In this document: piece after piece, positions 10,877 through 61,060 of the stretch
How the letters are laid out: each line of letters starts with the position of its first letter
Numbering within the stretch: the stretch's first letter is position 1
NCBI RefSeq assembly: GCF_046119375.1
Contig: NW_027362765.1
Location: 440,076,001-440,140,000 of the forward strand
Direction: 5' to 3'
DNA length: 64,000 nucleotides
Source of the DNA: Phyllobates terribilis
Taxonomy: Eukaryota
Notes under the pieces: model-generated
Databases searched by the model: none
Seen by the model: only the letters and a program-made list of their open reading frames with translations
What the model was told of the DNA's origin: nothing
Made by a program: the position numbers and the translations under genes

Positions 10877-12100
10877 TGTAGCACCCTGAGGATTCGGCTG
10901 CTACAGGGGTACTGCACCTCAACCAGAGGTGTGGTATTCCACTCCCGGGTAAGGATGGAGTGTGGATCTGAGCTCAGTAAGCTGCATGCACTACACACAT
11001 CCCATTTCCGAGGAACAGACCAACAGTACTCCCACTTAGAAATGTGCAGGTACGACCGAGTCTGTTCCTGGCTGGAGTGGGAGGGGGGTGGTACATCCCA
11101 GTAGTGTAGGGGCAGATAGGGGGAGCAGCCTGGGTAAAGATAGGAGCTCATTGGGTGCTGGTCACCTGAGCTCACACATAGAGGGAGTATTTAAGGTGGG
11201 CACCATCTAAGATCAGGGTCAGTCTGTGAGAGGTCAGTCAGTCAGGGTCAGTCTGTCAGTCTTTTGCAGAGCAGTGGAAGAAAGCAGAGGAGCAGAGCAG
11301 CCCCAGGCCCAGAGTGAGAGTGGAGCAAGAAAGACCCAGAGAGGGAGACAGAAGGAACTCTGAGAACCCACATACAAACACAGGGTGAAGAGTTGGCAAC
11401 AGGGTACCGGATCCCAAACTGGTGGGGGCTAAAGCATACCTCAGCCAGAGACCGGAGGCCGTGGGCAGGATCTGCCACGGCCACCCACCACATCCACCCT
11501 GAAGGCAAACCACGTGTAGGGTCAGGGAACCCAAGGCCAAGGGTCTCCCAACAGAAGGCCCGAGGGAGCTGGACCTAGGTGGATCCCTGGTGGGGACGGC
11601 CAGAAGAAAGGACAAGAAGGAGGGCTCAGGGACACGCTCCGGACTTGCTTGGGGGTTGGCTGAATCCAGGACCTGGTGGACGCAGCACGGCTCGGGTGGT
11701 CACTCAAGGCCGGAGTGACCGGAATATCTGCAGTAAGTAAACACCCTGAACTGCACAACCCGACTCTGTCTTTAATTATCATCTACGCTGCACCACCACA
11801 ACCCCCATCCTCTGCACCTGACCCCCTGAGGCCATACCCCTCCCGTTGGGGGTTATACTATCTAAAGCTGCACCAACACCATCAGCCTCAGCGGACCCTG
11901 CTGCAGCGGCGGCCGTAGTGACCGCAAATCAGCGGGTGGCGTAGTCGACACAAAAGAACATCTAGTAACATCATAAGGACTGCCACACACTGAGCTTGAC
12001 ACCCTGGGCACGGACCGGGTCACAGCCACTCGGAGACTACAACCCCCATCTGATCCGGCTCCGGGTATTCCCTAAAGAATATGGCCCAGGGGGCGCGTCA
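10877..12100 (+). repeat. 5' LTR of X1 (1224 bp)
   Basis: TATA-like TATTTAA at about 11188; AGTAAA poly(A)-like signal at about 11737; near-identical to 14605-15829. Confidence 0.95.
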
Positions 12101-14132
12101 ACTTTGGCGTAGTCGGCAGGATCTCGTGCCCGCAACACCCGGGTACTGCGTGCCTGAAGAAAAGAACAAGTTTACCTCAAAAAGAAGTCTCCTGCCGGTT
12201 CCGGAGGGTCCCCGCCATCGGACCCCATCACAGGTCGTTTCCCGCCGGTTGTCCGCCATTAACAGCTTTTTCCCGCCATCTGCAGAGTTTCCCGCCACTG
12301 GGAGACGATTCCCGCCATTTCCAAAGGTTTCCCGCCTTGGGGGAGCGGACGCCATTATGGGCGTGCCAGAGGGTGGCAAGAGGCCACCTCCCATCGTGGG
12401 CCAGGACCGAAAATGGCGCCAAAAGTGGAAACCGCCCCCACCAACAGAGACTGTGATGCTAGAGGTGTCTGTCAGCGTGAAAGAACTGCCCCTGGAGCTG
12501 ACAATCACCAAGTGGCCCCGGGACCGCCCTCGAAGTGGGAGGACTGAGAAGAAGAGAACAAAGATGGGTGTCGCCTGGAGCAGTCTGGAGAGAGCGCACC
12601 CGGAGACAAGAAGCCTAGAGCTGAGTCCAGAAGAAGCTTACCCGGAGATGGAAGAAGAGCAGAGCAGCACCGGCCCGCTGGCCAGGAGCCTGCTGGAGAC
12701 AACGGAAAGAGAGCAGAGCAGCACCGACCCGTTGGTCAGGAGCCTGCTAGAAGCAACGACCCCACTAGGCTTAGTGGAGGTCCTGGCACAGCTCCCCCGA
12801 GATCGGGAGTGTGCGCAGACTGCGCTGGAGGGCCTCGCACGGAGGATGGCCCGGGTGCAACGAGAGACATTGGCGGAGTGGAGCCGAGAGATGGCCCAGC
12901 GGACCGAGACTCGTCAGCGGAGCACGCCACCCGAGACGAGGAGACAGACCGCCTCTGAGGATGGCGCAGGAGGACTGAAGGCCGGAGACGGCGCCGAGAA
13001 GGGAGCCGAACGAAAGGAGGCAGGTAAAGGGGACGTTTCTACCCCAAACCGGGAAACCGCGTACCTGCCCCAGCTCCCCGTCGCAGAGCCCGAAGTACCC
13101 CCTGCCGTGCCCGTAACCGCAACGTCACTGCCACAGACTAGGCCTCAACCGGAAGCCGAAGCCGCGACCCCTGTGACGTCACACGCCTCGACCCCGAGCG
13201 TGACCAAGCAGGAAGTACCACCAGCCTGGTCGCAAGGCCTAGTACCCCCGGGCGCCGCAATACCAACAGCGCCCCCTACCTCCGCGGAGCCACCGGCCTG
13301 GTCGCAGGGCCAAGTAGCCCAGGGCGCCGCCGTCCTTACGGTGCCCTTCACTTTCCAGGTGCCCCAGGCCTGGCCGCAAGGCCTGGGCAACCCGGGCGCC
13401 ACCACCACCGCGCCCATAAAACCAAGAGTGCCGCATCTGGGAGAAGATCTGTTCGCCCAACACACATGGCCGGACGGGCAGCCCTTTGTGTGGCCCAGGG
13501 AGTACTACGAACAAGAGCTCCAAAAGAGGACAAGGCCCATGTGTGAGCCCCTGATCCCGGCTCCGAAGCCCGTAAAAAGGACCTCGCCCCCGCTAGAGGA
13601 GGCACAGTTTGAGTGGGACCCCACCGGAGAAGACCTCATGGGGTTCACTCAGGAGACTCGGGCAGCCGCAGCGGATCGTGCAGAGTGCTGCCGCCAGCAG
13701 CTCGAGGTCTTTGAGAGGGAGCAGAGAGAGAGGCGGGTCCGGGAACAACAAGCCCAAATAAAGAGCGCGGAGCAGAAGAGCCGGGCCAGGAGGAGTCCCC
13801 GTGCAGCTCATGGTCCCCCTTCCACCGGGACTGTGATCAAGTTTAATATGCAGCACGGGTGGGGCTTCATCCGAGATCACCGCACCCCAGGCGACGTCTT
13901 CGTGACAAGAAGAGACGTTGAGTCCCACCTACCGGAGGGACACAGAGGACGTGACCTGTATATAGGGGACGAGGTCACCTTCACCCGGCACAAGTGTGCC
14001 AAAGGACCCTACGCCCTCCATGTGCATCGCCTGACGGAGGAGGAGCTGCGGTGTGAAGAGGAGCAAGAGGACCCGGACGGGTCTGAAGCTAAAGTGAATC
14101 ACAAAGAAAGAGCAGGAGGACGTCGTCGTTGA
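12081..14132 (+). CDS. Cold-shock-domain protein encoded by X1 (683 aa from the first ATG; 591 aa from the better-context ATG at 12357)
   Basis: CSD at about 13824-14030: TGTVIKFNMQHGWGFI (RNP1-like), DVFVT (RNP2-like), LYIGDEVTF...KGPYALHV. It is preceded by Pro/Ala-rich repeats and a charged coiled-coil-like stretch, and followed by an acidic then basic tail. Confidence 0.85.
   Translation: MAQGARQLWRSRQDLVPATPGYCVPEEKNKFTSKRSLLPVPEGPRHRTPSQVVSRRLSAINSFFPPSAEFPATGRRFPPFPKVSRLGGADAIMGVPEGGKRPPPIVGQDRKWRQKWKPPPPTETVMLEVSVSVKELPLELTITKWPRDRPRSGRTEKKRTKMGVAWSSLERAHPETRSLELSPEEAYPEMEEEQSSTGPLARSLLETTEREQSSTDPLVRSLLEATTPLGLVEVLAQLPRDRECAQTALEGLARRMARVQRETLAEWSREMAQRTETRQRSTPPETRRQTASEDGAGGLKAGDGAEKGAERKEAGKGDVSTPNRETAYLPQLPVAEPEVPPAVPVTATSLPQTRPQPEAEAATPVTSHASTPSVTKQEVPPAWSQGLVPPGAAIPTAPPTSAEPPAWSQGQVAQGAAVLTVPFTFQVPQAWPQGLGNPGATTTAPIKPRVPHLGEDLFAQHTWPDGQPFVWPREYYEQELQKRTRPMCEPLIPAPKPVKRTSPPLEEAQFEWDPTGEDLMGFTQETRAAAADRAECCRQQLEVFEREQRERRVREQQAQIKSAEQKSRARRSPRAAHGPPSTGTVIKFNMQHGWGFIRDHRTPGDVFVTRRDVESHLPEGHRGRDLYIGDEVTFTRHKCAKGPYALHVHRLTEEELRCEEEQEDPDGSEAKVNHKERAGGRRR
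12105..12122 (+). promoter_or_regulatory. Primer-binding site for tRNA-Ser
   Basis: TGGCGTAGTCGGCAGGAT is the reverse complement of the vertebrate tRNA-Ser 3' end (...ATCCTGCCGACTACGCCA) and lies 4 nt after the LTR. Confidence 0.9.
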
Positions 14133-14604
14133 GTACAGCGGAGTAGAAGCTGTATATAGTTGCCCGTCGGGGCACAGTGAACCGTTGCTGCTAATATAGT
14201 CCCCGTTGGGACCAGAGAATTGAACTGTTACCCGTATTTCCCTTAATCCCACTGACCGAGGACTGAGAGCGGTCATCCCTTTCCTAAATATCTGGCCGAG
14301 GACTGAGAGCGGCCATATCCCTTTGTATATAGTTGCGCGTCCTAAAGCGCCCCCTACTGGTTTTACAGGAAAACCATTTTTCTAGAGAAACTGTTGCATT
14401 TTTCCCGGGCACACGTTGCACAGTGTCCGGAGGAGGAGCTAGAAGCGAGGAAAAGTCTACAAGAATGTTTTATATGAAAAGTTTTATTGATATATATATA
14501 TATAATGTTTTATATGATGTTTTATATGTTTATGCAAAAATTGTATGTTTGTGGTGTTTATTCTTTTACAGCCCGAGGACGTGCTGTGATTTACCAGGGG
14601 GGAA

Positions 14605-15829
14605 TGTAGCACCCTGAGGATTCGGCTGCTACAGGGGTATTGCACCTCAACCAGAGGTGTGGTATTCCACTCCCGGGTAAGGATGGAGTGTGGATCTGAG
14701 CTCAGTAAGCTGCATGCACTACACACATCCCATTTCCGAGGAACAGACCAACAGTACTCCCACTTAGAAATGTGCAGGTACGACCGAGTCTGTTCCTGGC
14801 TGGAGTGGGAGGGGGGTGGTACATCCCAGTAGTGTAGGGGCAGATAGGGGGAGCAGCCTGGGTAAAGATAGGAGCTCATTGGGTGCTGGTCACCTGAGCT
14901 CACACATAGAGGGAGTATTTAAGGTGGGCACCATCTAAGATCAGGGTCAGTCTGTGAGAGGTCAGTCAGTCAGGGTCAGTCTGTCAGTCTTTTGCAGAGC
15001 AGTGGAAGAAAGCAGAGGAGCAGAGCAGCCCCAGGCCCAGAGTGAGAGTGGAGCAAGAAAGACCCAGAGAGGGAGACAGAAGGAACTCTGAGAACCCACA
15101 TACAAACACAGGGTGAAGAGTTGGCAACAGGGTACCGGATCCCAAACTGGTGGGGGCTAAAGCATACCTCAGCCAGAGACCGGAGGCCGTGGGCAGGATC
15201 TGCCACGGCCACCCACCACATCCACCCTGAAGGCAAACCACGTGTAGGGTCAGGGAACCCAAGGCCAAGGGTCTCCCAACAGAAGGCCCGAGGGAGCTGG
15301 ACCTAGGTGGATCCCTGGTGGGGACGGCCAGAAGAAAGGACAAGAAGGAGGGCTCAGGGACACGCTCCGGACTTGCTTGGGGGTTGGCTGAATCCAGGAC
15401 CTGGTGGACGCAGCACGGCTCGGGTGGTCACTCAAGGCCGGAGTGACCGGAATATCTGCAGTAAGTAAACACCCTGAACTGCACAACCCGACTCTGTCTT
15501 TAATTATCATCTACGCTGCACCACCACAACCCCCATCCTCTGCACCTGACCCCCTGAGGCCATACCCCTCCCGTTGGGGGTTATACTATCTAAAGCTGCA
15601 CCAACACCATCAGCCTCAGCGGACCCTGCTGCAGCGGCGGCCGTAGTGACCGCAAATCAACGGGTGGCGTAGTCGACACAAAAGAACATCTAGTAACATC
15701 ATAAGGACTGCCACACACTGAGCTTGACACCCTGGGCACGGACCGGGTCACAGCCACTCGGAGACTACAACCCCCATCTGATCCGGCTCCGGGTATTCCC
15801 CTAAAGAATATGGCCCAGGGGGCGCGTCA
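14605..15829 (+). repeat. 3' LTR of X1
   Basis: Direct repeat of 10877-12100, preceded by the PPT. Confidence 0.95.
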
Positions 15830-15833
15830 ATTG

Positions 15834-18295: not shown

Positions 18296-18301
18296 TTCAA
18301 T

Positions 18302-19189: not shown

Positions 19190-19238
19190 AATGGAAACTG
19201 GAAGTCTTTCCTTAGAGATATTTTTGGGCTGGACTTAC

Positions 19239-19661
19239 TGTTATGATCTGCTACAAGCACTAAGGAAAGAAAGGAGATCTGTCCCTACAATAGAACTAAG
19301 CTAGATCCCTACGATGTAACGGGGAACCAGATCCTGCGATCAGACCCGCTAAAGTCATCGGCTAGTCTGTACGAAGACCTATAGATGCAAAGGAGGGATC
19401 CCTACAAGAACTAGGGACTGGGATAAAGTTGGACACCTCCTAGCAGAAATTGTAGCAGTAAACGACAAACACACAACATAGAACAGAAAGATCCGAAGAC
19501 CTAGCTAAACTGACTGAGAAAGGTAACTAATCACCAGGCTAGCTAAAGAGTAGAAATTACAATGAAGTCCAGCAAGGCCAGGAGGGCGGAGCAGGACTAA
19601 ATAGGCAAAAAAGGTCATGTGACCAGCAAGATAGAAAAAACCTAACAGGAGAGTTCTAACA
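19239..19661 (-). repeat. 5' LTR of element A
   Basis: Direct repeat of 9730-10152, followed by TSD GCATC. Confidence 0.95.
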
Positions 19662-21607
19662 GCATCGTCCCATTCACTGCTTATTTTCCTCTTGCAGAGC
19701 CTGAACACTGCAAAAAATTTGTAGGTCTGCAGCATAGAAAAGAATTCCCACACCCAAGATGCCTATACTTAAGACTTGCCACCACCACAATGACACCAAG
19801 AGCTTTCAGGCACTGTTGAACCTCTGCTCCACCTTAATCACCTGCTCCAAAACTGACTGCGGAAGAAGCAGATCTACTGGCTGAATGTCAGCTCTTTATG
19901 GCTGAAGGCAACACCCTCCTCCTCTGATGACCTCTCCTACTCGTCATCCCCAAAAAAAGATCATAGGTCTTTTCCTTCACACCACCATCATCATCCTTAA
20001 CTTTGCTAACAGTTGCCTCAATGTGGGAAATGTCCTAAGATCCTTGCCTCCCGCCTCTAGATTGGCCACATCTAAAGCCATGTGAGCCTTCGGCCTTTGG
20101 TGGCTGATGTATCTTCTGTAATGTGTAAAATGGTGGTGGCACAAATTATTTAATTTCAGAGGTATTGTGGGATTTCTACTCAATTGAGTGCGATGGGAGG
20201 CAAAACAGGAAGCGCTTCCATTTAAAGGTCCATTCTGGTTTATTGTGGTGTCATAAACCAGCCATAAGCAAAGGAAAATAAATGGCCTTAGTTCAGGAAA
20301 ACAAACTAATCAGTTTGTTTTGAAAAGTCTCTTGAGAGCCTGTCCTGGTCACACAGGCTGGATAGTATCCAGTACACCGGTTCAGTTTGAAGATAACATG
20401 CAGGAGGACCTCTTCCTCCTCACATAGAGACCATGTGCCAAATAACGGCCTCCATTTTAACTTGTTAACCACACCTAGAGGTGAGGTATGTGGCCAGCCA
20501 GACCTGTCCATCTCTCTGGCTACCCGTAAAACCTGGCCCAGATGCACCAAACAATCCTCTTAGTATTTATGTGTAGAGTAATGTAGAGTAATATTCCAGG
20601 ATTATATCACAGATAACAACCATCTCTGTGATACATACCTCCCATCAACTCTGTGTCCTTGAGATACCTTACAGTACCTAAAACTTTCATGAATTTCTGT
20701 TATGATCTGCAACATGTACTAAGGAAAGATAGGGGAAAGCTGTCCCTACAGTAAGACTAAGCTGAATCCCTACAATGTAGCGGGCTGCCTGTTCCTAGTG
20801 AACAGACCCGCCTTAGTCCTCAGCTAGTCTGAACGAAGACATATAGAATTAAAGGAGGGGTCCCTAAAAGCACTAAGGACTGGGACAAAAATGGGACACC
20901 TCCTAAACAGAGAAGTTGTTGCAGAACACAAAAAGACAAACTGACAAAAATGTACTAGAGGTCCCAGAGGACCAAGCGAACTTGACAGAGAAAGCACCAG
21001 GCTAGAGAAACAGTCAAACACTGAAGTCCAGCACAGCCACAAGGGCGGAGCTGGAATATAAAGGCAGATGGTCACGTGACCGCAAAACACAAGATAGAAA
21101 AAACAAACAGGAGGGTTCTAACAGTACCCTCTCTTTTATGAGGATCCTCCGGATCCTCCAGGCCCAGGCCTATCCGGAAACCTCCTGTGGAAAGCTTTAA
21201 CAAGCTTAGGAGCAGAGACATCATCCGTCCTTACCCAGGAGTTGTCTCCGGGACCGAAACCCTTCCAGGAGACAAGATACTGTAATCTCCCTCTATGCCA
21301 TCTAGAATTCAAGATACGAGAAATTTCATATTTGCCGTCTTCCACAACAGGAGGAACTGTGACAGTAGCGACCCTATCAGATACATCAGCCTTTTTCAAC
21401 AAGGAAACATTAAACACAGGATTAATCTTCCAGGAAGTAGGGACATCCAACCTAACAGCAGATGGGTTAACAACCTGAAGCCCTTTAAATGGACCCACAA
21501 ACTTAGGACCCAGTTTTTTAGAGAGATTTTCTGGGGACTAGGACCTGGCATTACCTCATTGAGCCTGCACCTCAGTCTCTTGTCTATACGAACAGCTAAC
21601 TGCATAG

Positions 21608-24600
21608 TGATGCGCCCCCTGGGCCATGTTGTGCAGCGTTGCGCATGCGGGGAATACCCGGAGCCGGATCTGATAGGGGTAGTAGTCCTCGTGGCGGTGA
21701 CCCAGTCCGTGCCCAGGGTGTCAAACCAAGTGGCAGAACTTAGAGTAAGATGTTATATTGTTCGACTACGCCACCCGTTGATTGCGGCTATGAAGCCGCC
21801 GCTGCAGGGCAGACCGCTGAGGCCGGTGGTACGGGTGTGCAGCGTGGATAGTATAACCCCCAACGGGAGGGGTATGGCCCCAGGGCAGCAGGCGAAGAGG
21901 GGATGATGGTAGTGATGTTATAGTAGTCCCCGTCCTAATAGTGCTAATGCGACAAGGAATCAGTGAGACGTACAGCTGCAGTTTTCAATGCTTTACTCAC
22001 AGTTCTTTATCAGGTCCCTTGTGCGCAGTCAAGACCGCCCGAGTCATGCTGCGTCCACCAGGTCAGGGACTCAGCCAACTCCCAGGCAATTCCAGAGCGT
22101 GGTCCAGAGCTCCCCTCTCTTCCTTCCTACTGGCCGTCCCCACCAGGGACCCACCTTTGTCCGGCTCCCTCGGGCCTTTTGGTGGCGAAGCCTTTCCCGG
22201 TTTCCCTGACCCTATACGGTATGCCTTCCTGGTGGATATGGTGAGGGGTCGCGCCAAGACTTGACCACGACCTCCGGTTCCTGGCTAAGGATAATTGGCC
22301 TCCACCAGTTTGGGATCCGGTACCCTGTTCTGCCAACCCTTCACCCGTTATTCCGTGGGATCTTAGGGTTCCCTCTTTTCTTGCGTCTCTGGGCCTTTCC
22401 TGGTGTTTATGTTCCTTCTTCCTCTTACTTCTCTCTCTCTCTCTGCTTCAGGCCTCCACTTCAGGCCTGGCTCTGGAGCTGGGCCCGGACTGAGCCACAG
22501 CTCCCTGTCAGCCCTCTCTGGCTGAACTCTCTCAGACTGCACTCCTCTGCACCTCCTCTGCACCTCCTCCCCGTTCTATCATGGTGCCCACCTTTTATAC
22601 TCCCTTCTGACACCCGAGCCCAGGTGACCAGCACCCAATGGGCTCCTACCTATGCCCAGAGTCCCTCCCCTGTCTGCTCCTACACCACTGGGATATTCCT
22701 CCCCCCTCCCCACTCCAGCCAGGGACAGACGCTGTCGTACCTGCACATCTATCTGGTGGGAGTACCGTTGATCTGTCCCCCGGAAATGGGGTGAGTGTAG
22801 TGTATGCAGCTAACTGAGCCCCGTTCCACACTCCATCCTTACCCGGGAGTGGAATACCGCACCTCTGGTTCGAGGTGCAATACCCCTGCAGCAGCCGAGT
22901 CCTCGGGGTGCTACATTCCCCCCTGGTAAATCACAGCACGTCCTCGGGCTGGAATAGAATAAAAACATTTTAAACATACAAATATTTTTAAAGTGCACTC
23001 GCATATAAGACATTAACTATGAACTCATCCCCTTTATGAGAGGTACTCTTTTCTTCTTAACGTTACTGGCATAAAACATTTTTAAAACATTCTACTAATG
23101 CCACCGGAACTCTTTTGTAAAACACTATATAAAACTTTTGGCATTATCATTTTAGCAGCATATTAAACTTTCCATTATAAGACATTTTTTTTACACAAAC
23201 ATTTTCAACACATATGCTTGAGCTCCGGCCACTGTGCAACTTGCGACCAGGTAAAGTGCAACAGACACTACTTCCAAGGTAGAAAGGCAGTTCTTATAAA
23301 ACCAATAGGGGGCGCTTTAAGAAACGCAACTATGTACAAGGGTATGGCCGCTCTCAGTCCTCGGCCAGTGGGAATAGGGGAATGGCTGCTCACAGTCCTC
23401 AGCCTGGTTAGGGATTAGGGGCACACAGGTAACAGTTCTTTAACAGTTCCATACTAGTCCCAACGGGGACCACACTTCAATCAGCAAGAGTCCTTGTACC
23501 CCGACGGGTAACTATATACAGTTCCACTTTACCATTCTCTAATAATGGTGTCCTCCTTGTTCTTCCGGGTAGTCTTCAGGTCTGTTCGGACCCTCGATGT
23601 ACTCTGTTTCTTGGTGGTACTGTAGCTCCTCCTCCGTGAGCCTGTGAACGTGGAGGGTGTATGGTCCTTTGGCACCCTTGTGCTGGGTGAAGGTGACCAC
23701 ATCACCCGGGTAGAGATCACGTCCGTGGTGTCCCTCCGGCAGGTGGCTGTGGCAGTGAAGCTCTCCTCTGTATCCGACATCCTCCTCCCCCTAGTGGACC
23801 GTGGCCTACCTTGCGATGATCCTCTTCCGTAGGCCGCGGCTCCGCAGTGGATCGTCAGGGTTGAGGACCTTCCGTCGCGCTCCTGTGACGTCGGCGTCTG
23901 CTGGGCTCCTTCCAGGACCTTACGCAACGTCCGGACGTGAGGCGGAGCTTCAGTTCTCGGGCGCTTTCGGAGTCCACGCCCCTCTTCTTCCCGCGCGGCG
24001 TCCTCAAGATGGCGTCCAATGGCGGGAAAACTCCACGGATGGCGGGAAGAAGGCAGAAGATGGCGTCGGATGGCGGGAAAACTCCACGGATGGCGGGAAT
24101 CCTCTGGAATTGGCGGGAGACTTCTTTTTGAGGTACATGTGAACTTTTCTTCAGGCACGCAGTACCCGGTGGTTGCGGGCACGAGATCCTGGGCCCCCTG
24201 GGCCTGTGCTGCTGCTGCTGTGCAGGGGGAATACCCGGAGCCGGATCTGATAGGGGTAGTAGTCCTCGTGGCGGTGACCCGGTCCGTGCCCAGGGTGTCA
24301 AACCAAGTGGCAGAACTTAGAGTAAGATGTTATATTGTTCGACTACGCCACCCGTTGATTGCGGCTATGAAGCCGCCGCTGCAGGGCAGACCGCTGAGGC
24401 CGGTGGTACGGGTGTGCAGCGTGGATAGTATAACCCCCAACGGGAGGGGTATGGCCCCAGGGCAGCAGGCGAAGAGGGGATGATGGTAGTGATGTTATAG
24501 TAGTCCCCGTCCTAATAGTGCTAATGTGACAAGGAATCAGTGAGACGTACAGCTGCAGTTTTCAATGCTTTACTCACAGTTCTTTATCAGGTCCCTTGTG

Positions 24601-25492
24601 CGCAGTCAAGACCGCCCGAGTCAGGCTGCGTCCACCAGGTCAGGGACTCGGCCAACTCCCAGGCAATTCCAGAGCGTGGTCCAGAGCTCCCCTCTCTTCC
24701 TTCCTACTGGCCGTCCCCACCAGGGACCCACCTTTGTCCGGCTCCCTCGGGCCTTTTGGTGGCGAAGCCTTTCCCGGTTTCCCTGACCCTATACGGTATG
24801 CCTTCCTGGTGGATATGGTGAGGGGTCGCGCCAAGACTTGACCACGACCTCCGGTTCCTGGCTAAGGATAATTGGCCTCCACCAGTTTGGGATCCGGTAC
24901 CCTGTTCTGCCAACCCTTCACCCGTTATTCCGTGGGATCTTAGGGTTCCCTCTTTTCTTGCGTCTCTGGGCCTTTCCTGGTGTTTATGTTCCTTCTTCCT
25001 CTTACTTCTCTCTCTCTCTCTGCTTCAGGCCTCCACTTCAGGCCTGGCTCTGGAGCTGGGCCCGGACTGAGCCACAGCTCCCTGTCAGCCCTCTCTGGCT
25101 GAACTCTCTCAGACTGCACTCCTCTGCACCTCCTCTGCACCTCCTCCCCATTCTATCATGGTGCCCACCTTTTATACTCCCTTCTGACACCCGAGCCCAG
25201 GTGACCAGCACCCAATGGGCTCCTACCTATGCCCAGAGTCCCTCCCCTGTCTGCTCCTACACCACTGGGATATTCCTCCCCCCTCCCCACTCCAGCCAGG
25301 GACAGACGCTGTCGTACCTGCACATCTATCTGGTGGGAGTACCGTTGATCTGTCCCCCGGAAATGGGGTGAGTGTAGTGTATGCAGCTAACTGAGCCCCG
25401 TTCCACACTCCATCCTTACCCGGGAGTGGAATACCGCACCTCTGGTTCGAGGTGCAATACCCCTGCAGCAGCCGAGTCCTCGGGGTGCTACA
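21608..25492 (-). mobile_element. Element X2: non-autonomous relative of X1, with a gag start fused to the 3' half of the CSD gene
   Basis: LTRs 21608-22915 and about 24191-25492; flanking duplication CATAG; PPT complement TTCCCCCCT after 22915; 3' UTR homologous to X1; PBS largely deleted at about 24190. Confidence 0.92.
23539..23748 (-). pseudogene. C-terminal half of the CSD protein in X2 (69 aa plus stop), out of frame with the upstream gag ATG at 23780
   Basis: SHLPEGHHGRDLYPGDVVTFTQHKGAKGPYTLHVHRLTEEEL is 36/42 identical to the X1 protein. Confidence 0.9.
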
Positions 25493-46313: not shown

Positions 46314-46365
<52 letters not shown>

Positions 46366-47907
46366 GACGCGCCCCCTGGGCCTGTGTTGTGCGGGGGAAC
46401 CCGGAACCGGGCCTGTTGTAGAATGCTGGGGGTTGTAGACTCCGTGTGGCGGTGACCTGGTCCGTGCCCAGGGTGGTCGAACCAGTGGCAGTCTAAATGT
46501 TGTAATAAGTGTCCGACTACGCCACCCGTGGATTGCGGTCAGTGGGGACCGCCGCTGCGCTGCCGACCGCTGAGGCTGATGTTGGTTGCGCAGCCGAGTA
46601 TGGGATAACTCCCCACGGGAGAAGTATTGCCTCAGGGCAGCTAATGTGGAAGATGATGGGAGTGATGGTGTGAGGGTCCCAGTGCTAATGGTGCAGGAGC
46701 GGCAAGGAATCACAGAGACGTGTGGTGCAGTTCAGGGTCTTTACTGATGGTACAAGGCAGACCCTCCCGGGAGTACTGGCTAGTATAAGGGGCCTGGTCA
46801 GTCTGCGAGCAAGCAGGAGTTCCCCTGGCCAGGTGGAGTTGTAGGCCTCCCCGTTTATCTGCACTCTTCCTGGCTACCTTGCTGTCAGCGGTTACAAGTA
46901 GCCCACGTCCCTGAGTATACCGTGTGGTGCTCACCCGTATGGCTGGTGACTTGGGGCCTTCTGTTAGCCTCCGCTCCTGGATGGCGGCGCTGGTCCCTTC
47001 TTTGTGACTGAGCCTCCGGGCTTCTATGGCCAGAGGACCTGGAATCCCCTGCCGGCTGGTTTCTGCTGCTGGGTGTATATCAGTCCCCACAGCCTCGGAC
47101 TCCTGTGTCCGGTTTTAGTGTCTTCGTCCAGGGCGAGCTCTGCTCAGCTCCAGCCCCTGGACTTCAGCTACTGCTCCTCCAGAGCTCCTGATCTCACTTT
47201 CCCTCTCCAGACTCTGACTCTGTCTGCAGCTTCACTCTCTAATCCCGCCCCAGACCCAGTTTATAAGGGCAGATTCCTCCCCTCCCAGGTCTGGGTGGGC
47301 CGTGTTGCATGTTTAGGGCTCCTGACCAGAGAAACCTCCCACTTGCTCTCAGACATAATATCTCTATTACTGTGGCAACCAGACCCCTGGGGTGTCACAT
47401 TCCCCCCTAGTAAATTTTAGTACTCTGGGACTAAACACATTTTTTTTTAAAGAAACATAAATACAGGGTATAATAATAATACAATAACATATTCACAAGA
47501 AACTTTAGTCTGTAGAGGTCACGGCGTTTCTGTGACCGGGTGTCCATATCACCCAAGGTGAAGTTTATGAAGCAAAGGGGGTGTCCATGTCACCCAACAA
47601 GGCGAAGTCTTGGCACAGAATAGGGGACCTGTCCAAAGCAAACCCCTTGCGTTGTCCTTGGGCGTGGCTGCAAGGGTAGACTAACTACTTTGGGCCGCAA
47701 GGAGGCCACGCCAGACAGGTTTTCTCTTCCGCGGCCGTCTTCACAAGAGGCACCAAGGTGCAACTATCTACAAAACTGTTCCGGTTATCCAGTGTCCATA
47801 ACCTGTTAGTCCAAATAAATCTGCAGGGTAACTGAGAAACATAATTAGTAACAGGCAACAAACATAAACCATAAACATTTAAACAGATAAATTCACAGTG
47901 CATTGGT

Positions 47908-50900
47908 TTAGATTCTCCAGCGAGCGGGCATCTGACCTCTAGTGACTCTAGTGGACCTACGGAGCTCACTAACTGGTTCTGCACTACAGGGTGTAGGAGG
48001 TGTTATGGGCAAGCTGGGCAGCTTTCTGCGCACTCTTTGGCTCACTAGGGGCACGGCAGGCTCACTACTAGCAGAGGGTTGATCCTCCTGTACTGCTGGT
48101 GTGGACTCTTCTGCCTCTTGGGCCGGCTGCTCTTCCAGCTCTACCGGTTCCTCTGTAGGCACTTGCAGGGCTGGCTGGAGAAAGGTGAGGACGGGTACCA
48201 CGACAGCGCCGTTTACTTGTGTCCAAGACCGGGGGAAGTCTCCGAGTATGGTACTGATCATTTCTTCCCTTTCCTCTGCGGGTTGAGGGTTTTCTTGATC
48301 TTCTTCAGGGCTTTGCAGCTGCTCGGGACACTTCTTCAGGTGGTCTCTGGAGACAATGGCTGTGGTTTCTCCTCCATCCTTACTGATTACGCAGATTTTT
48401 GGGTTCTCATGGCTTGATGGCAGTACGGTGTACGGGTCCTTCTCCCACTGGTCGTCCAACTTGTGGAGCCGCCTCTTCCTCTTCAAGACCTGCTCTCCAT
48501 GTACCAGGGGAACAGCGGGAGCATACTGGTTATAAGCCTTCTCTTGCCTTTCTCTAGCTTGAGACAGACTTCGCTCGACGCTCTCCTGTACTTTCCGATA
48601 CTGCTGCTGCCGTTCTGTATCCCAGTCTGCCTCTGGCGAGGTGTCCTCAGGCGTCAGGACTCCCATATCCAGGTCAATAGGCAGCTTACCAGGTCTTGCT
48701 CTCATTAGGTAAGCTGGGGTACAGTTGGTGGAACTTACAGGGATGTGGTTATACAGGTCCACCAGATCGGGCAGTTTCTCAGGCCACAGACTGCGTTCTT
48801 CCAGGGGCAATGTTTTTAGCAGATCTATCACCACCTGGTTCATCTTCTCGCAGAGTCCATTGGTTTGAGGGTGATAGGGCGTTGTTCTTATCTTCTTGCA
48901 GCCATACAGGTTGCAGAACTCCTGGAAGACCTCCGCTTCGAAGGCTGGTCCTTGGTCTGTCAACACTTGGTCCGGGTACCCGTGTGGACGGCAGAAGTGC
49001 TGCTGGAAGGCTCTAGCTGCTGTTTGAGCCGTTAAGTCCTTGACCGGGACCACCACCAGGAACCGGGAGTAATGATCTACGATTGTGAGGGCGTAGACAT
49101 ACCCAGATCTGCTTGGAGCCAGTTTCACATGGTCCAGGGCTACCAGTTCCAGTGGCTGTCTGGTGATGATGGGCTGCAAGGGAGTCTTCTGGCTGGCTCG
49201 GTCTTTTCTTCTCAGGTGGCACGGGCCACAGTCTCTGCACCACCTCTCGATGGCTCCTCTCATGCCTACCCAGTAGAACCGTTCACGCAACAAGAACTCC
49301 AGCTTCTTCCATCCGAAATGCCCAGCTCCGTTGTGGTATGCCTCCAGAACCATAGCCGCGTCTCGTCTTGGGACCACTACCTGCCAGGTCAACTCATGTG
49401 TTCGAGAGTTAACCATTCTCCGGCACAGCTTCTCCCTGTAGAGGAACAGCTTACTTTTCTCCTTCCACAGTTGCTTGGTCTCCTCCGGAGCATCTGGGTC
49501 AAGACGGGCATCGGCCTGGGTCAGCATTTCCTTCACCAAATGGACTGCGGGATCACTGTCTTGCGTCTCCGCCCAGTTGTAGTGGGGCAAGGGATTGAAC
49601 GTCACGGAGCGCCTGTCCTTCACACGGTGGGAATACAGGGTAATCCCATGACGGTGGAACGCAGGGAGCTCAACTTCTTCCAGATCTTCTGGATCTTCCC
49701 CTACGTCCGGTAAGTTCGGTATTCTAGACAGGGCATCCGCGTTGGCATTTGAGCGTCCTGCCCGGTATTTGATGGTGAATTCAAAGTTGGACAGGCGGGC
49801 CATCCATCTCTGTTCCAGGGCACCGAGCCTTGCAGTGTCCAGGTGTGTCAACGGGTTGTTATCCGTGTACACGGTGAATTTGGAGGAGGCAAGGTAATGC
49901 TTGAAACGTTCGGTCACTGCCCACACTACTGCCAGGAACTCCAGCTTGAATGAGCTATAATTCTCAGGGTTCCTCTCCGTGGGCCGTAGCTTTCGGCTGG
50001 CGTAAGTGATTACCCGTTCTTTCCCTTGCTGGATCTGGGACAGTACGGCTCCTAGCCCGATGTTGCATGCGTCCGTGTGGAGGATAAAGGGCTGGCTGTA
50101 GTCTGGATATGCCAGGATTTCATCCCCCGTGAGGGCCATCTTCAGCTGGCAGAAGGACTCCTCTTCCAGCTTTTCCCACCTGAAGGGCGGCTTCTGGTTT
50201 TTGGCTTTCCGAGATTGACCTATCAGGAGGTCCTGCATAGGGGCTGCCATTTTGGTGAAACCGGGAATGAATCTTCGGTAGTAGCCTACCAACCCGAGGA
50301 ACTGCCGCACTTCCTTTATGCTGGAGGGTCTTGGCCAGTCCTTAATCACAGTGATCTTATCAGGGTCGGGAGCCACTCCGTCAGCACTCACCACGTGTCC
50401 CAGGTACTGCACCTTTGGTTTCAGGAGGTGACACTTGGAGGGTTTCACCTTTAGGCCGTAATTCGCCAGAGCTTCGAAAACTTCTGCCAGGTGTTTCAGG
50501 TGGTCCTCGTAGGTCTTGGAATAGACGATGACATGTCCAGGTATAACAGGACCGTCTCGAAGTTCCGGTGTCCCAGACAGCATTCCATCAACCGTTGGAA
50601 GGTTCCTGGTGCGTTGCAGAGCCCAAACGGCATGCAGTTAAATTCACTGAGACCCATCGGGGTGGTGAATGCGGTCTTCTCCCGGTCCGCCTCTGCTACA
50701 GGAACCTGCCAGTACCCGCTAGTGAGATCCAAAGTAGAGAAGAAGTTAGCAGATTTTAATGCAGCTAAGGACTCTTCTATCCTTGGTAACGGGTACGCAT
50801 CTTTGTGTGTGATACGGTTGACCTTCCTGTAGTCTACACACATTCTCATGGTGTTGTCTTTCTTTTTCACTAAGACTAGTGGAGCTGCCCAGGGGCTACA

Positions 50901-52163
50901 GCTGTCCCTGATTACCCCAGCCTCCTTCATGTCTCTAAGCATCCCCTTGGCGTGTTGGTAGTGTGCCGGGGGTACGGGTCGGTATCTCTCCATTATGGGA
51001 GGATGGTCTCCCGTGGGGATGTGGTGTTCTACCCCCTTTACTCGCCCGAAGTCTAGCGGGTGTTTACTAAACACTCTCTCGTACTCTCGAACCACCCGAT
51101 AGACTCCCTGTTTCTGGTGTGAGGGAGTGGAGTCAGTACCCAAATGCAGTTGCTGACACCAGTCCTCCATTGGTTTCTTAGAGCCGTTACCTTCCTCTGG
51201 TTGAGATGGAGGCAAGGGTTCCACGGCCTGTACAGAATTCTGGTTTATGGTGAACAATTTGGCTAGCGTGGCATACCGGGGCAGGTGTACTTCTCTCTCC
51301 CCGATATTTATGATGCGAACGGGCACCCTCCCATGGCGTACATCGACCACCCCCCGTGCTGTCAAAATGGTGGGCCTACTGTCTGAGTAGACGGGTTCTA
51401 CCATTGCTTGGTAGTCTCTACCTCTTAGACCAATAGCTGCCCGGCACCAAATCATCATCTCACTTTTTGGGGGCATGGCAATAGGGAACGGGTCACACAT
51501 TCTCACGCTACCTATCTCACCACCAGATAGTTCCACCTGTTGCCGCTTCATCAGTGCCCGGATCTCTTTTTGGAGCACACGCTGCTGGCCGGAACTGGCG
51601 TTCTTGGCAACCTGCTGTAAAATGAGAATCACCTCTGCAAGACAATTTTCAATCACATTACTTCCCAAGGTTATTCTAGGGTGACTCTCATGACGGTCTA
51701 TGTCCACTATAATCAGTCCTTGTGCCGCCAGTTCGACTTTACCGATCTTAATGGTCACCTCTTTGAATCCCACCTGCGGCACGGGCTGACCATTGCTGGC
51801 GATGATACTCAGGTCGTCATCTGGGTAGCGGGTTATGTCCGAGTCATTCCAGTACTGCTTGAAGAGCACGTACGGGATGGTGGTGACCTGTGACCCGGTG
51901 TCTAGTAGGGCACTCATAGGAATGCCATCCAGTACCACAGGCAAGATTGGACGTCCCCCTACGTATTTATCACGCCAGTTTGATGGGCCTGATGGTCTTA
52001 TGCCTGGGGGTTGGCCCTCTACCCCAGGTTGTGCCCGTTTAAATGACAGTACCTTGCCACATGTCCGGGTTGATTGCAGTGGCGGCAGATGGGTCGTCCG
52101 TCCTCGTTGTATCTGTCGCTGGGTCTTCCTCTGGCCAGTGGGGTCCTCCTCAGTCGGTGCCAC
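47908..52163 (-). CDS. pol: Element C Pol (PR-RT-RH-IN) with one 1-nt deletion in the YLDD codons at about 50534
   Basis: ORFs 50496-52163 and 47908-50583. Protease LLDTGSQ; RT LDLTSGYWQ, FGLCNAPGTFQR; RH LHTDAC, TDNNPL; IN H-H-C-C zinc motif, ALDH, TDQG, NGLCEKMN. No chromodomain. Confidence 0.93.
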
Positions 52164-53002
52164 GGGACGTCCTCCGGTCCGGATGCCAGCTGGATCTTTC
52201 CTGGAGAAGAGACCTGTAAAGACTGCACAGTTCTGGTTAGCGCGGCAACGCTCTTAGTCAGCTCTTGGACCTGATGGTGCAGGTCTGTAGCCGGGTCACT
52301 GTTTAAAGCCTGCGCATCAGCTCCCACAGGCCCTGCAGACAAGGGCGCCGTCTCCTGGTGGTAAGTGATAGCAGGGCGCCTGTGGGTCACAGCGCCACCT
52401 GGTGCCGGTTCTCGGAGCACCCGGATGGCTCTGTCCTTAAACTGTGCAAAGTCCAGGTCAGGGTCCTGTAAGGCCATTGCCCGCAACTGGGTTCGGTGGG
52501 CATTGCACAGTAGACCCTCAATAAATTGTTCAGTCAACAGCTTATCTTCATTTCCCATGCTGTCAGGGTCTGCCTGCTTAATGGCTCTCAGGGCCTCTTG
52601 TAGGTTTAGAGCATAGTCTCTTATACTCTCATGTGCCCGTTGTTTGCACCCATAATATCTTAGTTTTATTTCGGCTGAGGTGCGGGTGTCAAATGTGTCT
52701 TTCAGCCGGGTTAGTATGTCTCTGACAGTCCTCTTCCTCCCAGGTGGCCAGGACTTTACCTCCCTTTGGGCTGCCCCGATTAATTGGGCCACCAGGATGC
52801 TCACTTTTTGCTCTTCTGTGAGGGGGTACACCTGGAAGAGGCTATCCAGTCTTTCTCTAAAGTCATTTAGAGTATGTGACTCCCCTGAGTACTGGGGTAG
52901 CCAGGTTGCCCCCGGGATATAGGGCATGGTGAATGGCATGACTGCTGCAGCGGTTGCGCTGGTGGTAGCTGTGGCAGTGGAGCTCCCCTCGGTATCCGGC
53001 AT
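52019..53002 (-). CDS. gag: Element C Gag (PNMA-like) with CCHC knuckle
   Basis: PWLPQYSG-like capsid start (TWLPQYSGE); CRHCNQPGHVARYC; slippery T TTA AAC at 52043-52037 with pol in the -1 frame. Confidence 0.92.
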   Translation of the reverse strand: MPDTEGSSTATATTSATAAAVMPFTMPYIPGATWLPQYSGESHTLNDFRERLDSLFQVYPLTEEQKVSILVAQLIGAAQREVKSWPPGRKRTVRDILTRLKDTFDTRTSAEIKLRYYGCKQRAHESIRDYALNLQEALRAIKQADPDSMGNEDKLLTEQFIEGLLCNAHRTQLRAMALQDPDLDFAQFKDRAIRVLREPAPGGAVTHRRPAITYHQETAPLSAGPVGADAQALNSDPATDLHHQVQELTKSVAALTRTVQSLQVSSPGKIQLASGPEDVPWHRLRRTPLARGRPSDRYNEDGRPICRHCNQPGHVARYCHLNGHNLG

Positions 53003-53433
53003 CCTCCTCCCCCCTAGTGGACCGTGGCCTACCTTGCGATGCTCTTCTTCCGTAGGCCGCGGCTCCGCAGTCGATCGTCGGGGTTGAGGACCTGGCGTCG
53101 CGCTCCGATGACGTCAGCGTCGCTCTTCCTCCCTTCCAGGACCTTGCGCAGCGTCAGAGCGTGGGGCGGAGCTTCGGATCTCGTGCGCTTTCGGCGTCCA
53201 CGCCCCTCTTCTTCCCGTGCGGCGTCCCGAAGATGGCGTCCGAAGGCGGGAAGCAGCTGCGGATGGCGGGAAGAAGGCAGAAGACGGCGGGAAACGGTCC
53301 AAGATGACGTCTGATGGCGGGAATCGGCTCCGGATGGCGGGAAAAACGACTCCGGACGGCGGGAAACTTCACCACAGGTAAGTATAAAAGTCTCTTTTTC
53401 AGGCACGCAGTACCCGGTGGTTGCGGGCACGAA

Positions 53434-53451
53434 ATCCTGCCGACTACGCCA
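53434..53451 (-). promoter_or_regulatory. tRNA-Ser primer-binding site of C
   Basis: The plus strand reads ATCCTGCCGACTACGCCA, identical to the tRNA-Ser 3' end. Confidence 0.92.
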
Positions 53452-54516
53452 AAGTTGACACGCCCCCTGGGCCTGTGTTGTGCAGGGGAACCCGGAACCG
53501 GGCCTGTTGTAGAATGCTGGGGGTTGTAGTCTCCGTGTGGCGGTGACCCGGTCCGTGCCCAGGGTGGTCAAACCAGTGGCAGTCTAAATGTTGTAATAAG
53601 TGTCCGACTACGCCACCCGTGGATTGCGGTCAGTGGGGACCGCCGCTGCACTGCCGACCGCTGAGGCTGATGTTGGTTGCGCAGCCGAGTATGGGATAAC
53701 TCCCCACGGGAGAAGTATTGCCTCAGGGCAGCTAATGTGGAAGATGATGGGAGTGATGGTGTGAGGGTCCCAGTGCTAATGGTGCAGGAGCGGCAAGGAA
53801 TCACAGAGACGTGTGGTGCAGTTCAGGGTCTTTACTGATGGTACAAGGCAGACCCTCCCGGGAGTACTGGCTAGTATAAGGGGCCTGGTCAGTCTGCGAG
53901 CAAGCAGGAGTTCCCCTGGCCAGGTGGAGTTGTAGGCCTCCCCGTTTATCTGCACTCTTCCTGGCTACCTTGCTGTCAGCGGTTACAAGTAGCCCACGTC
54001 CCTGAGTATACCGTGTGGTGCTCACCCGTATGGCTGGTGACTTGGGGCCTTCTGTTAGCCTCCGCTCCTGGATGGCGGCGCTGGTCCCTTCTTTGTGACT
54101 GAGCCTCCGGGCTTCTATGGCCAGAGGACCTGGAATCCCCTGCCGGCTGGTTTCTGCTGCTGGGTGTATATCAGTCCCCACAGCCTCGGACTCCTGTGTC
54201 CGGTTTTAGTGTCTTCGTCCAGGGCGAGCTCTGCTCAGCTCCAGCCCCTGGACTTCAGCTACTGCTCCTCCAGAGCTCCTGATCTCACTTTCCCTCTCCA
54301 GACTCTGACTCTGTCTGCAGCTTCACTCTCTAATCCCGCCCCAGACCCAGTTTATAAGGGCAGATTCCTCCCCTCCCAGGTCTGGGTGGGCCGTGTTGCA
54401 TGTTTAGGGCTCCTGACCAGAGAAACCTCCCACTTGCTCTCAGACATAATATCTCTATTACTGTGGCAACCAGACCCCTGGGGTGTCACATATATATATA
54501 TATATGTATATATACA

Positions 54517-57572: not shown

Positions 57573-60500
57573 TGACGCGCCCCTGGGCCTGTGTCGCGCT
57601 GCGTTGCGCACGCGGGAGCTTACCCGGAGCCGGATCTCTTGAGGGTTGTAGTCTCGTGGCGGTGATCCGGTCCGTGCCCAGGGAGTCAGACTAAGTGGCG
57701 CTGTATTAGCGGTAGATGTTGGACGACTACGCCACCCGTTGAGTACAGCTAAGGAGCTGCTGCTGCAGGGCAGACCGCTGAGGCCGGTGGTAGGATTATG
57801 CAGCGTGATAGTATAACCCCCAACGGGAGGGGTATGGCCTCAGGGCAGCCGACGTGGATGATGGGGGTAGCAGGAACCACTCGGAGACGGTACGGTGTAG
57901 TTCAGGGTCTTTACTGGTGACAAAGATAGACCCTCCCGGAGTACTGGCTAGCGATTGGGGCCTGGTCAGTCCTTGAGCAGATGGGAACTCCCCTGGCCAG
58001 GCGGAGTTGTAGGCCTCCCAAACTAACGATACTCTTCCGGCTACCTTGCTAGGGGCGGGTATAAGTAGCCCACGTCCCTGAGTGTACCGTGTGGTGCTCA
58101 CCCGTATGGCCGGTGACTCGGGGCCTTCTAGTAGCTTCCGCTCCACGACGGCGGTGCTGGTCCCACGCGTGTGACCGTGCCTTCGGGTTTCTGGGCCAGA
58201 GGACCTGCAATCCCCTGCCGGTCGGTTTCTGCTGCTGGATAGGAGTTAGTCCCCACAGCTTCGGACTCCGGGTCCGGTAAGATATCTTCTCAGTCAGGGC
58301 GAGCTCTGCAGCTGCCAGCCCCTGACTCCTTGTAACACTTCTCCCACAGAGCTCCTGTTGTTTCTTCCCATAGCTGCTTCTCTTCTCTGCCTCTACTTCT
58401 GGCATGGCCCAGGAGCTGGGCCCAGCCGGTGCCACAGCTCCCTGTCAGCCCTCCTGGCTGAACTCTCCCTCTGAACTCCCTCACCCTGCCTCAGCCCCAG
58501 GTTTATATAGGGGAAGTTCTTCCCCTCCCAGGACTGGGCAGGAGGTGTGGCATGCACAGGATCCCTGACCAAGAGACCTCCCACCTGCTCTCAGACATAA
58601 CATTGCTGTTACTGTGGAAACCAGACCCCTGGGGTGCCACATTCCCCCCTAGTGAAATTTAGTACTCCGGGACTAAACATATTTTTAGAAAAACATAACA
58701 AGGTATAAACAATAATAATACAATAAGAAAAACACATAAAGATGGTTACGGCATGTCCGCAACCGGGTTCAGTCTTTGAAGAAAAGCAAGGTGTCCATTT
58801 CACCAAAACAGGGAGACGTAACCAGGTAGGGGTCTGTCCTGCCCCGAGTCCTTAACAGTCTTTAGTCCATTCCTGGGTTACGCTCCAACCATGTACAAAG
58901 GATTCCCGGTAAATCCACCAAAGACTCCCATAAATTACTGGAAACACATAATTATTTACAGGATATGGCCGCTCTCAGTCCTCGGCCAGTGGGGATAAGG
59001 AATGGCTGCTCACAGTCCTCAGCCTGGTTTAAGATAGGGGCACATGGGGAACAATTCACTAATCCCAACGGGGACCATATTTTAATTAGCAGCAGTCCTT
59101 GTACCCTTACGGGTAACTATTTACAGCTCTTTATTCACGCTACTTCCCTTCAGTAGCTATGTCCTCTTTGTGCTCCCTCCTGAGGGTAGTCCTCAGACCC
59201 GTCCGGGTCCTCTTGGCTTTCCTCGTATTGGTAGTACTGCAGCTCCTCCTCGGTTAGCTGGGTTAGTATCTCTGCGACAGTCCTCCTCCCAGGTGGCCAG
59301 GACTTTACCTCCCTTTGGGCTGCCCCGGTTAATTGGGCCACCAGGATGCTCACTTTTTGCTCTTCTGTGAGGGGGTACACCTGGAAGAGGCTATCCAGCT
59401 TTTCACTAAAGTCATTCAGGGTATGTGACTCCCCTGAGTATTGGGGTAGCCAGGCTGCTCCCGGGATATAGGGCATGGTAAAAGGCATGACTGCAGCAGC
59501 GCTGGCGCTGGCGGGGGTTGAGGCAGTGAAGCTCTCCTCCGTATCCGACATCTTCCTCCCCCCTAGTGGACCGTGGCCTACCTTGCGATGATCCTCTTCC
59601 GTAGGCCGCGGCTCCGCAGTGGATCGTCAGGGTCGAGGACCTTCCGTCGCGCTCCTGTGACGTCAGCGTCTGCTGGGCTCCTTCCAGGACCTTACGCGAC
59701 GTCTGGACGTGAGGCGGGGCTTCAGTTCTCGCGCGCTTTTGGAGTCCACGCCCCTCTTCTTCCCGCGCGGCGTCTTCAAGATGGCGTCCAACGGCGGGAA
59801 AACTCCACGGAAGGCAGGAAGAAGGCTGAAAATGGCGCCGGATGGCGGGAATCTTCACCAATGGCGGGAAGAAGGCTGAAGATGGCGCCGGATGGCGGGA
59901 ATCTTCACCACTGGTAAGTTTGAACAGTCTTTTTCAGGCATGCAGTACCCGGTGGTTGCGGGCACGAGATCCTGCCAACTACGCCAAAAGTTGACGCGCC
60001 CCTGGGCCTGTGTCGCGCTGCGTTGCGCACGCGGGAGCTTACCCGGAGCCGGATCTTTTGAGGGTTGTAGTCTCGTGGCGGTGATCCGGTCCGTGCCCAG
60101 GGAGTCAGACTAAGTGGCGCTGTATTAGCGGTAGATGTTGGACGACTACGCCACCCGTTGAGTACAGCTAAGGAGCTGCTGCTGCAGGGCAGACCGCTGA
60201 GGCCGGTGGTAGGATTATGCAGCGTGATAGTATAACCCCCAACGGGAGGGGTATGGCCTCAGGGCAGCCGACGTGGATGATGGGGGTAGCAGGAACCACT
60301 CGGAGACGGTACGGTGTAGTTCAGGGTCTTTACTGGTGACAAAGATAGACCCTCCCAGAGTACTGGCTAGCGATTGGGGCCTGGTCAGTCCTTGAGCAGA
60401 TGGGATCTCCCCTGGCCAGGCGGAGTTGTAGGCCTCCCAAACTAACGATACTCTTCCGGCTACCTTGCTAGGGGCGGGTATAAGTAGCCCACGTCCCTGA

Positions 60501-61060
60501 GTGTACCGTGTGGTGCTCACCCGTATGGCCGGTGACTCGGGGCCTTCTAGTAGCTTCCGCTCCACGACGGCGGTGCTGGTCCCACGCGTGTGACCGTGCC
60601 TTCGGGTTTCTGGGCCAGAGGACCTGCAATCCCCTGCCGGACGGTTTCTGCTGCTGGATAGGAGTTAGTCCCCACAGCCTCGGACTCCGGGTCCGGTAAG
60701 AAATCTTCTCAGTCAGGGCGAGCTCTGCAGCTGCCAGCCCCTGACTCCTTGTAACACTGCTCCCACAGAGCTCCTGTTGTTTCTTCCCATAGCTGCTTCT
60801 CTTCTCTGCCTCTACTTCTGGCATGGCCCAGGAGCTGGGCCAAGCCGGAGCCACAGCTCCCTGTCAACCCTCCTGGCTGAACTCTCCCTCTGAACTCCCT
60901 CACCCTGCCTCAGCCCCAGGTTTATATAGGGGAAGTTCTTCCCCTCCCAGGACTGGGCAGGAGGTGTGGCATGCACAGGATCCCTGACCAAGAGACCTCC
61001 CACCTGCTCTCAGACATAACATTGCTGTTACTGTGGAAACCAGACCCCTGGGGTGCCACA
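57573..61060 (-). mobile_element. Element D: non-autonomous mosaic of C-like and X1/X2-like sequence
   Basis: 1069-bp LTRs 57573-58641 and 59992-61060 (about 10 differences by eye); 4-bp TSD CAGT; PBS with one mismatch 59969-59986; PPT 58642-58650. Confidence 0.95.
59150..59551 (-). CDS. In-frame fusion: C-like Gag N-terminus plus the acidic tail of the CSD protein (133 aa)
   Basis: AAAVMPFTMPYIPGAAWLPQYSGESHTLNDF...VKSWPPGR matches C Gag. LTEEELQYYQYEESQEDPDGSEDY matches the X1/X2 tail (LTEEEL..QEDPDGSE). Confidence 0.75.
   Translation of the reverse strand: MSDTEESFTASTPASASAAAVMPFTMPYIPGAAWLPQYSGESHTLNDFSEKLDSLFQVYPLTEEQKVSILVAQLTGAAQREVKSWPPGRRTVAEILTQLTEEELQYYQYEESQEDPDGSEDYPQEGAQRGHSY

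Follow-up and report, generated by a model that had tools for sequence, protein, structure and literature searches.

How did the start of a gag gene come to be joined, out of frame, to the end of a cold-shock-domain (CSD) gene inside a single LTR element of the frog Phyllobates terribilis? The element, X2, lies in a 64,000-nucleotide stretch of contig NW_027362765.1 (hereafter the window), which also contains X1 (an LTR, one long open reading frame (ORF) ending in a PF00313 match, and an LTR), the gag-pol Gypsy element C and a short element, X3. A sequence-only reading of the window had tied the CSD gene to the gag-pol lineage and left two options for the junction, a parent element with a third ORF or a template-switch chimera.

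X2 occupies 21608..25492 on the minus strand (3,885 bp, TG...CA ends) and is flanked by a 5-bp target-site duplication (21603-21607 and 25493-25497). Its 5′ LTR (24190..25492, minus) is of the CSD-element type. The leader that follows (23781..24189, minus) originates from a gag-pol family, GP2 (99% identity to loci L190/L191), and its first ~100 nt are also identical in a CSD-only sibling. The leader runs into the start of a GP2 gag (23742..23780, minus; ATG at 23780; 13 codons, MSDTEESFTATAT), which overlaps at the heptamer AGCCACC (23742..23748, minus), 7 nt common to both parents, with the tail of a CSD ORF (23539..23745, minus). This tail comprises the last 68 codons and stop, that is, the C-terminal half of the domain and an acidic tail, out of frame with gag; it begins past RNP1 and RNP2, lacks the N-terminal half of the CSD and gives no Pfam match alone. 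The 3′ UTR and polypurine tract (22916..23538, minus) are 98-99% identical to a CSD-only sibling family, and the 3′ LTR (21608..22915, minus) is of the CSD-element type, with a TATA-like motif at LTR nt 317 and AGTAAA at nt 919. The out-of-frame junction at AGCCACC is thus as the sequence-only reading had described it in coordinates and content, and its homology between the 3′ UTRs of X2 and X1 holds (72% over 13925-14432 versus 23746-23223). Its 69 CSD codons are 68 plus a stop, and its 13 gag codons are present, with GP2 rather than a C-like gag as donor. The hybrid X2 is dead as a coding sequence, and its copy in the window also lacks the primer-binding site (PBS). The LTRs of this copy have only 5 differences over 1,250 nt, yet their last ~45 nt diverge (24185-24235 versus 21608-21655) and the 5′ LTR end looks gag-pol-type, either because another exchange took place there or because the assembly is locally wrong. 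The first 10 nt of the PBS recur within U5 of the 3′ LTR (LTR nt 1143, window ~21764-21773, minus), and do so in GP2 as well.

The neighbours of X2 represent the two kinds of element that are joined in it. X1 (10877..15829, plus) is an intact CSD-only LTR element with a 4-bp target-site duplication, and belongs to a subfamily other than that of X2. From an ATG conserved across subfamilies, its ORF (12648..14132, plus) encodes 494 aa arranged as a helix, a Pro-rich linker, a long helix, the CSD (PF00313, ~13824-14027) and an acidic tail. X1 interrupts a different Ty3/Gypsy element (10165-19662) within its integrase region; the pol of that element resumes at 15830, and its C-terminus we take to be chromodomain-like. 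Two read runs cover the X1 stretch wholly; the RNA nature of these runs is a guess, so transcription is not thereby shown. Element C (46365..54491, minus) has a PNMA-like gag and PR-RT-RH-INT, is without a CSD ORF, and belongs to a sister family of GP2. Both GP2 and C consist of gag followed by PR-RT-RH-INT without env, and the integrase stop lies ~366 nt from the 3′ LTR, which places them in Ty3/Gypsy. CSD-only elements, here called passengers, and X2 are non-autonomous LTR elements, with paired TG...CA LTRs and a target-site duplication (X1 and 11 of 12 X2 copies) and no pol inside the LTR pair. A PBS, presumably matching tRNA-Ser, was found in 31 of 40 sampled passenger loci, and a polypurine tract is present.

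The junction is real. A 33-nt pattern spanning it has 10 exact loci genome-wide and 12 at up to two mismatches, distributed over nine contigs, with no control matches. Each of the 12 copies has its own LTR pair with 98.5-99.8% identity, which corresponds to roughly 0.3-3 million years at 2.5e-9 per site per year (the rate given in 10.1101/2023.11.06.565769). Target-site duplications flank 11 copies, ten of 4 bp and that of the window copy of 5 bp; one copy has none. Evidence for the junction consists of these separate genomic copies: contigs from four public runs are too short to span it, and an assembly artefact, which the sequence-only reading had raised against its own proposal, gains from the fact that no public contig bridges the junction. 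The probability of an artefact is nonetheless negligible because 12 copies occur on nine contigs, 11 of them with a target-site duplication of their own, and they differ in their flanks and carry private mutations. X2 is a small family of hybrids that itself transposed.

This family has two parents. The best 150 protein matches to the X2 tail include many ORFs of 500-840 codons; 15 such loci, taken whole, read LTR, CSD ORF, UTR, LTR, without internal gag or pol; those nearest to X2 are 97-99% identical to it in LTR and UTR (comparisons cover all 15 except L084). Matches to the X2 leader point elsewhere: 28 of the 30 listed loci continue into the gag of GP2, the other two being X2 copies, and the whole leader is found in five gag-pol elements that run on into full gag. 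When the sister copy L089 is compared in 100-nt steps, it is 97-100% identical to the CSD-only locus L073 except over nt 1401-1760, which are 98-100% identical to the gag-pol locus L190, and AGCCACC is present at the crossover in both parents. X2 is a mosaic with LTRs, CSD tail and 3′ UTR from a CSD-only element and leader and gag start from GP2. In three GP2 copies (L125-L127) the end of gag carries the same nested insertion, so insertion and element may have been copied together.

A mosaic of this order could also be left by internal deletion of a gag-pol-CSD parent, with CSD-only elements as deletion derivatives or copies of subgenomic RNA. In favour of this are the order gag, CSD, UTR, the known cases of extra ORFs downstream of pol and before the 3′ LTR (PMC7264820), and the CSDs of bird ERVs (PMC12287698). 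No such parent was found in any of three samples: a CSD ORF was seen in none of the 22 gag-pol elements readable to the 3′ LTR (26 fetched), gag or pol lay between the repeats in none of the 38 repeat-flanked loci among 40 CSD loci sampled by position (taken from the first 42 CSD motif matches listed), and a same-strand integrase motif lay within 7 kb upstream of none of 74 CSD motifs (compared with 100 integrase motifs over the initial 25.7 Mb of contig C1). These samples cover well under 1% of ~24,000 CSD and 29,000 integrase motif matches, a coverage that leaves room for a rare three-ORF element. Direct repeats enclose 38 of the 40 CSD loci, and the succession LTR-PBS-ORF-LTR was seen directly in 31. 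CSD and gag/pol did coincide in seven of 80 long loci, six of which proved to be neighbouring or nested insertions, outside the CSD LTR pair or on the other strand; at L246 both RT matches are on the other strand. Two much more divergent CSD ORFs with long branches (L218:1462-1956 and the centre of L257) have no gag/pol match nearby. The GP2 elements with X2's leader carry a gag-pol-type U3, unlike X2, and the CSD-only architecture holds across subfamilies that are only 37-60% identical in protein, and is therefore old and stable. Descent of X2 from a three-ORF parent is thus very unlikely, and of the two options in the sequence-only reading a template-switch chimera is favoured; such a parent could still be the remote origin of the passenger. 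The proposed tie between the CSD gene and the gag-pol lineage survives as a partnership, in which two kinds of element recombine, and not as descent from a three-ORF parent, none of which turned up in the samples.

X2 is not the only hybrid. X3 (57573..61060, minus) is a second, independent chimera in which gag-pol LTRs enclose ~97 gag codons in frame with the acidic tail that follows the CSD; in its 3′ part, ~190 nt of CSD-type UTR are succeeded by gag-pol UTR and LTR. The X3 pattern has 2,447 matches genome-wide, often in tandem, and at least 26 of 30 inspected matches have the same fusion, the other four having an upstream stop. A third case, L194 (position 2820-3455; ~376.83 Mb on the window's contig), is present once, flanked by a target-site duplication of its own, and joins ~60 gag codons in frame, at a 6-nt match, to the long helix and whole CSD. 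There are at least three independent chimeras, in each of which a 5′ piece of gag is followed by a 3′ piece of CSD origin, with other breakpoints in L194 and X3 than in X2. Passenger U5 tracks the gag-pol partner: in X2's sibling family it is 91-92% identical to GP2 and 71% to C, and in subfamily L081/L082 it is 91% identical to C and 73-76% to GP2. The U5 of the X1 subfamily has a best match of 79%, with no close partner among seven tested, and U3 is not common to passengers and gag-pol partners. Short derivatives (L217, L230 and L232; more widely L239, L246 and L248) have an ATG directly before a whole CSD and an ORF of ~100-120 aa; that at L248 sits between LTRs, and they may represent a minimal CSD-only form.

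We consider X2 to be the likely product of template switching between a co-packaged passenger RNA and the RNA of a gag-pol helper, GP2. Strong-stop DNA would have been primed on the passenger RNA and the passenger 3′ end copied up to the heptamer AGCCACC, where reverse transcriptase would have jumped, at the 7-nt match, to the co-packaged GP2 RNA. A single cycle of reverse transcription would be enough, since one switch in minus-strand synthesis would give the exact structure of X2; X3 needs two crossovers under the same model. Switches of this kind between RNAs packaged together are documented (PMC6894440, PMC4997597). Gag and the CSD ORF often match over seven bases (172 positions), so the heptamer fits a template switch but is no proof of it. 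The main competing explanation is that a broken genomic CSD element was repaired at the DNA level from a GP2 copy, with entry somewhere within the ~100 nt that follow the PBS and are identical in both parents, and exit at the heptamer, and that the product then transposed. Sequence alone cannot separate an RNA-level switch from such repair. The 5′ boundary does fall within a stretch identical in both parents, CSD and gag-pol families are both abundant, and the 5′ LTR end of the window copy may have undergone yet another exchange. Repair has to contend, however, with at least three independent chimeras that all have the polarity expected from minus-strand synthesis, with U5 exchange between partner families, and with 12 later insertions that required a helper anyway, and we regard it as unlikely.

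Which part of this system is under selection is a separate question. For X1 and X2 the sequence-only reading had counted 14 synonymous and 6 non-synonymous differences in 42 codons; we found 13 synonymous and 6 (41 codons) or 7 (42 codons) non-synonymous. The resulting dN/dS is 0.15-0.17 (Nei-Gojobori), with 5/5/15 differences by codon position, and none of 20,000 neutral simulations had seven or fewer replacements (mean 15.8). Other frames gave 1.2-1.9 in four of five cases and 0.29 in the antisense in-register frame. Between subfamilies, represented by groups picked by score, dN/dS is 0.04-0.21 for the CSD, 0.08-0.27 for the long helix, 0.13-0.48 for the first helix and 0.35-0.71 for the Pro-rich linker. 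Upstream of the conserved ATG, which lies in a strong context, the leader-like part has values of 0.55-1.1 in six of seven comparisons; an ATG in U5 was rejected as the true start of the passenger ORF on the basis of these mostly high upstream values and the position of the conserved ATG downstream. The CSD value across 30 position-sampled copies is 0.10, far from 1, as computed from 435 non-independent pairs with seven codons fixed by the search motif. CSD variants shared between these copies number 198 synonymous and 26 replacement, private ones 20 and 22, and 18 of the 30 are open from the conserved ATG. The between-subfamily comparisons and the sampled copies bear out the proposal, first made from X1 and X2, that purifying selection acted on the CSD protein during subfamily divergence.

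The same cannot be said of X2 as a gene copy. Its tail has 4-5 changes relative to full-length siblings, all of them replacements, and variants within the X2 family (11 of 12 copies, L090 left out) comprise 4 synonymous and 8 replacement changes, close to the 27% synonymous expected under neutrality. It is the intact passenger that is selected; the half-domain in X2 drifts neutrally. A functional fusion protein, read from the U5 ATG through the leader into the CSD tail, would contradict this, and in 8 of 12 copies that ATG does open a 229-codon frame in register with the tail. The frame is absent from the other four, including the window copy; it traverses a leader-like stretch with dN/dS near 1, X2 has lost the conserved start, which is located farther downstream, and the encoded fragment would have neither RNP1 nor RNP2 and a tail with neutral-looking variants. 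A fusion protein is extremely improbable, and we read the 229-codon frame as incidental.

The intact passenger encodes a protein of 410-520 aa. In a predicted structure of mean pLDDT 53, residues 24-74 and 305-349 form confident helices and 358-428 a barrel, and the linker is disordered. The CSD (PF00313, 33.1 bits versus a cut-off of 27) is the only domain above its Pfam cut-off, and the best Foldseek matches of the barrel are CspA and YB-1. RNP1-like GWGFI and RNP2-like DVFV motifs are kept, and the beta-1 Trp and RNP2 His of YB-1/CspA are replaced; RNA binding is predicted for the domain, in which two of the usual contact residues differ. Homology of the ORF to Gag (TR-GAG, 1a11 type) was rejected (hhalign probability 0.1%). 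A degenerate RNP1 pattern has 24,071 genome matches (control 3) and the integrase pattern of the helper clade has 29,219 (control 0). At ~4.9 kb each, ~24,000 passenger copies would make up roughly 1% of the 10.6-Gb genome. The only close protein homologues found are from Phyllobates, Ranitomeya and Anomaloglossus, and those with the same loop are in Ranitomeya variabilis, R. imitator and Anomaloglossus baeobatrachus. A CSD tree, with long branches and no YBX or Lin28 rows, did not place the donor gene, and neither searches for shorter homologues nor a protein-atlas search (best score 0.82, a lead only) yielded usable matches. The gene model "R3H and coiled-coil domain-containing protein 1" (P0002) starts with CSD-element sequence in residues 1-140, which is either an annotation error or exonisation. 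Intron-less tandem multi-CSD sequences at L208-L213 (C1, ~734.44 Mb), which we take to be CSDE1/Unr-like, are apparently processed copies, with exonic pieces at L214-L215.

Mobilisation of the passenger in trans by an autonomous partner is inferred because of the chimeras and the common U5 and PBS. Gag-pol partners, which have U5, PBS and polypurine tract in common with the passengers, would lend them particles and enzymes, and GP2 would do so for the passenger subfamily of X2. The junction is then a fossil record that two RNAs likely occupied one particle, and it names the helper of one passenger subfamily. The passenger is unusual in that it cannot move alone yet keeps a single non-gag gene under strong selection. 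Selection on such a gene would be best explained by a protein acting for its own RNA, and theory ties purifying selection in transposons to proteins of this kind (PMC13558583). The CSD protein might bind its own RNA as it is made, raising the chance that this RNA is stabilised or packaged, a proposal for which we see the balance as about even. X2 and X3 gained the helper leader and spread without an intact CSD, which is consistent with the leader replacing the job of the protein. It is doubtful, though conceivable, that the CSD element is instead the second segment of a two-part retrotransposon, with the protein an RNA chaperone or export factor that the partner also needs; the RNAs would then travel together, U5/PBS ends would stay matched and the copy ratio would be near 1:1, compared with the 24,071 CSD and 29,219 integrase matches. 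The family would lend itself to testing cis-preference in LTR elements. It is also a candidate contributor to giant frog genomes, in which much repeat content is unclassified (10.1101/2023.11.06.565769).

No paper on CSD-only LTR elements in frogs turned up in the literature searched, and a repeat catalogue may contain an entry for them; the term is absent from PMC6278860, a bioRxiv dyeing-frog paper and PMC6338049. Related systems are known in part. Soybean SNRE, in work by Du and colleagues from 2010, is reportedly an autonomous/non-autonomous LTR partnership with recombination. Other plant pairs that recombine include rice Dasheng/RIRE2 and barley BARE2 (PMC4079214). These resemble the passenger in that a pol-less element reaches high copy number and swaps LTR parts with a gag-pol partner; the passenger differs in its non-gag ORF under strong purifying selection, its shared U5/PBS with distinct U3 and its vertebrate host. 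Copy-choice recombination in retroviruses and LTR retrotransposons likewise yields mosaic insertions with a switch at a short match, and VL30 is packaged by MLV as a passenger, as outlined in PMC6894440 and PMC4997597. The X2 junction is mechanistically nothing new in comparison, although here such products are fixed in the germ line as 12 (X2) and ~2,400 (X3) copies. In birds, 46 ERVs with PF00313 are reported to reflect several independent captures and are proposed to be adaptive (PMC12287698); as presented there they are rare retroviruses identified by RT, in contrast to the frog passenger, which has the CSD ORF as its sole gene, a Ty3/Gypsy partner and tens of thousands of copies. Xenopus 1a11 and Xretpos are, like the passenger, single-ORF frog LTR elements without pol, and are expressed in embryos; the 1a11 product is Gag-like and its copies number in the tens, on the evidence summarised in PMC4585706, whereas the passenger ORF has no Gag similarity. 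The cold-shock fold is common to the passenger and to Y-box proteins and CspA (PDB 6ktc, 1mjc, 5o6f), and its long loop has the length of that in YB-1; the passenger CSD is only ~30% identical to them, has the beta-1 Trp and RNP2 His replaced and lies as a C-terminal domain behind a long helix. The junction is a known kind of event, and the new part is the evidence that the chimeras give for a helper.
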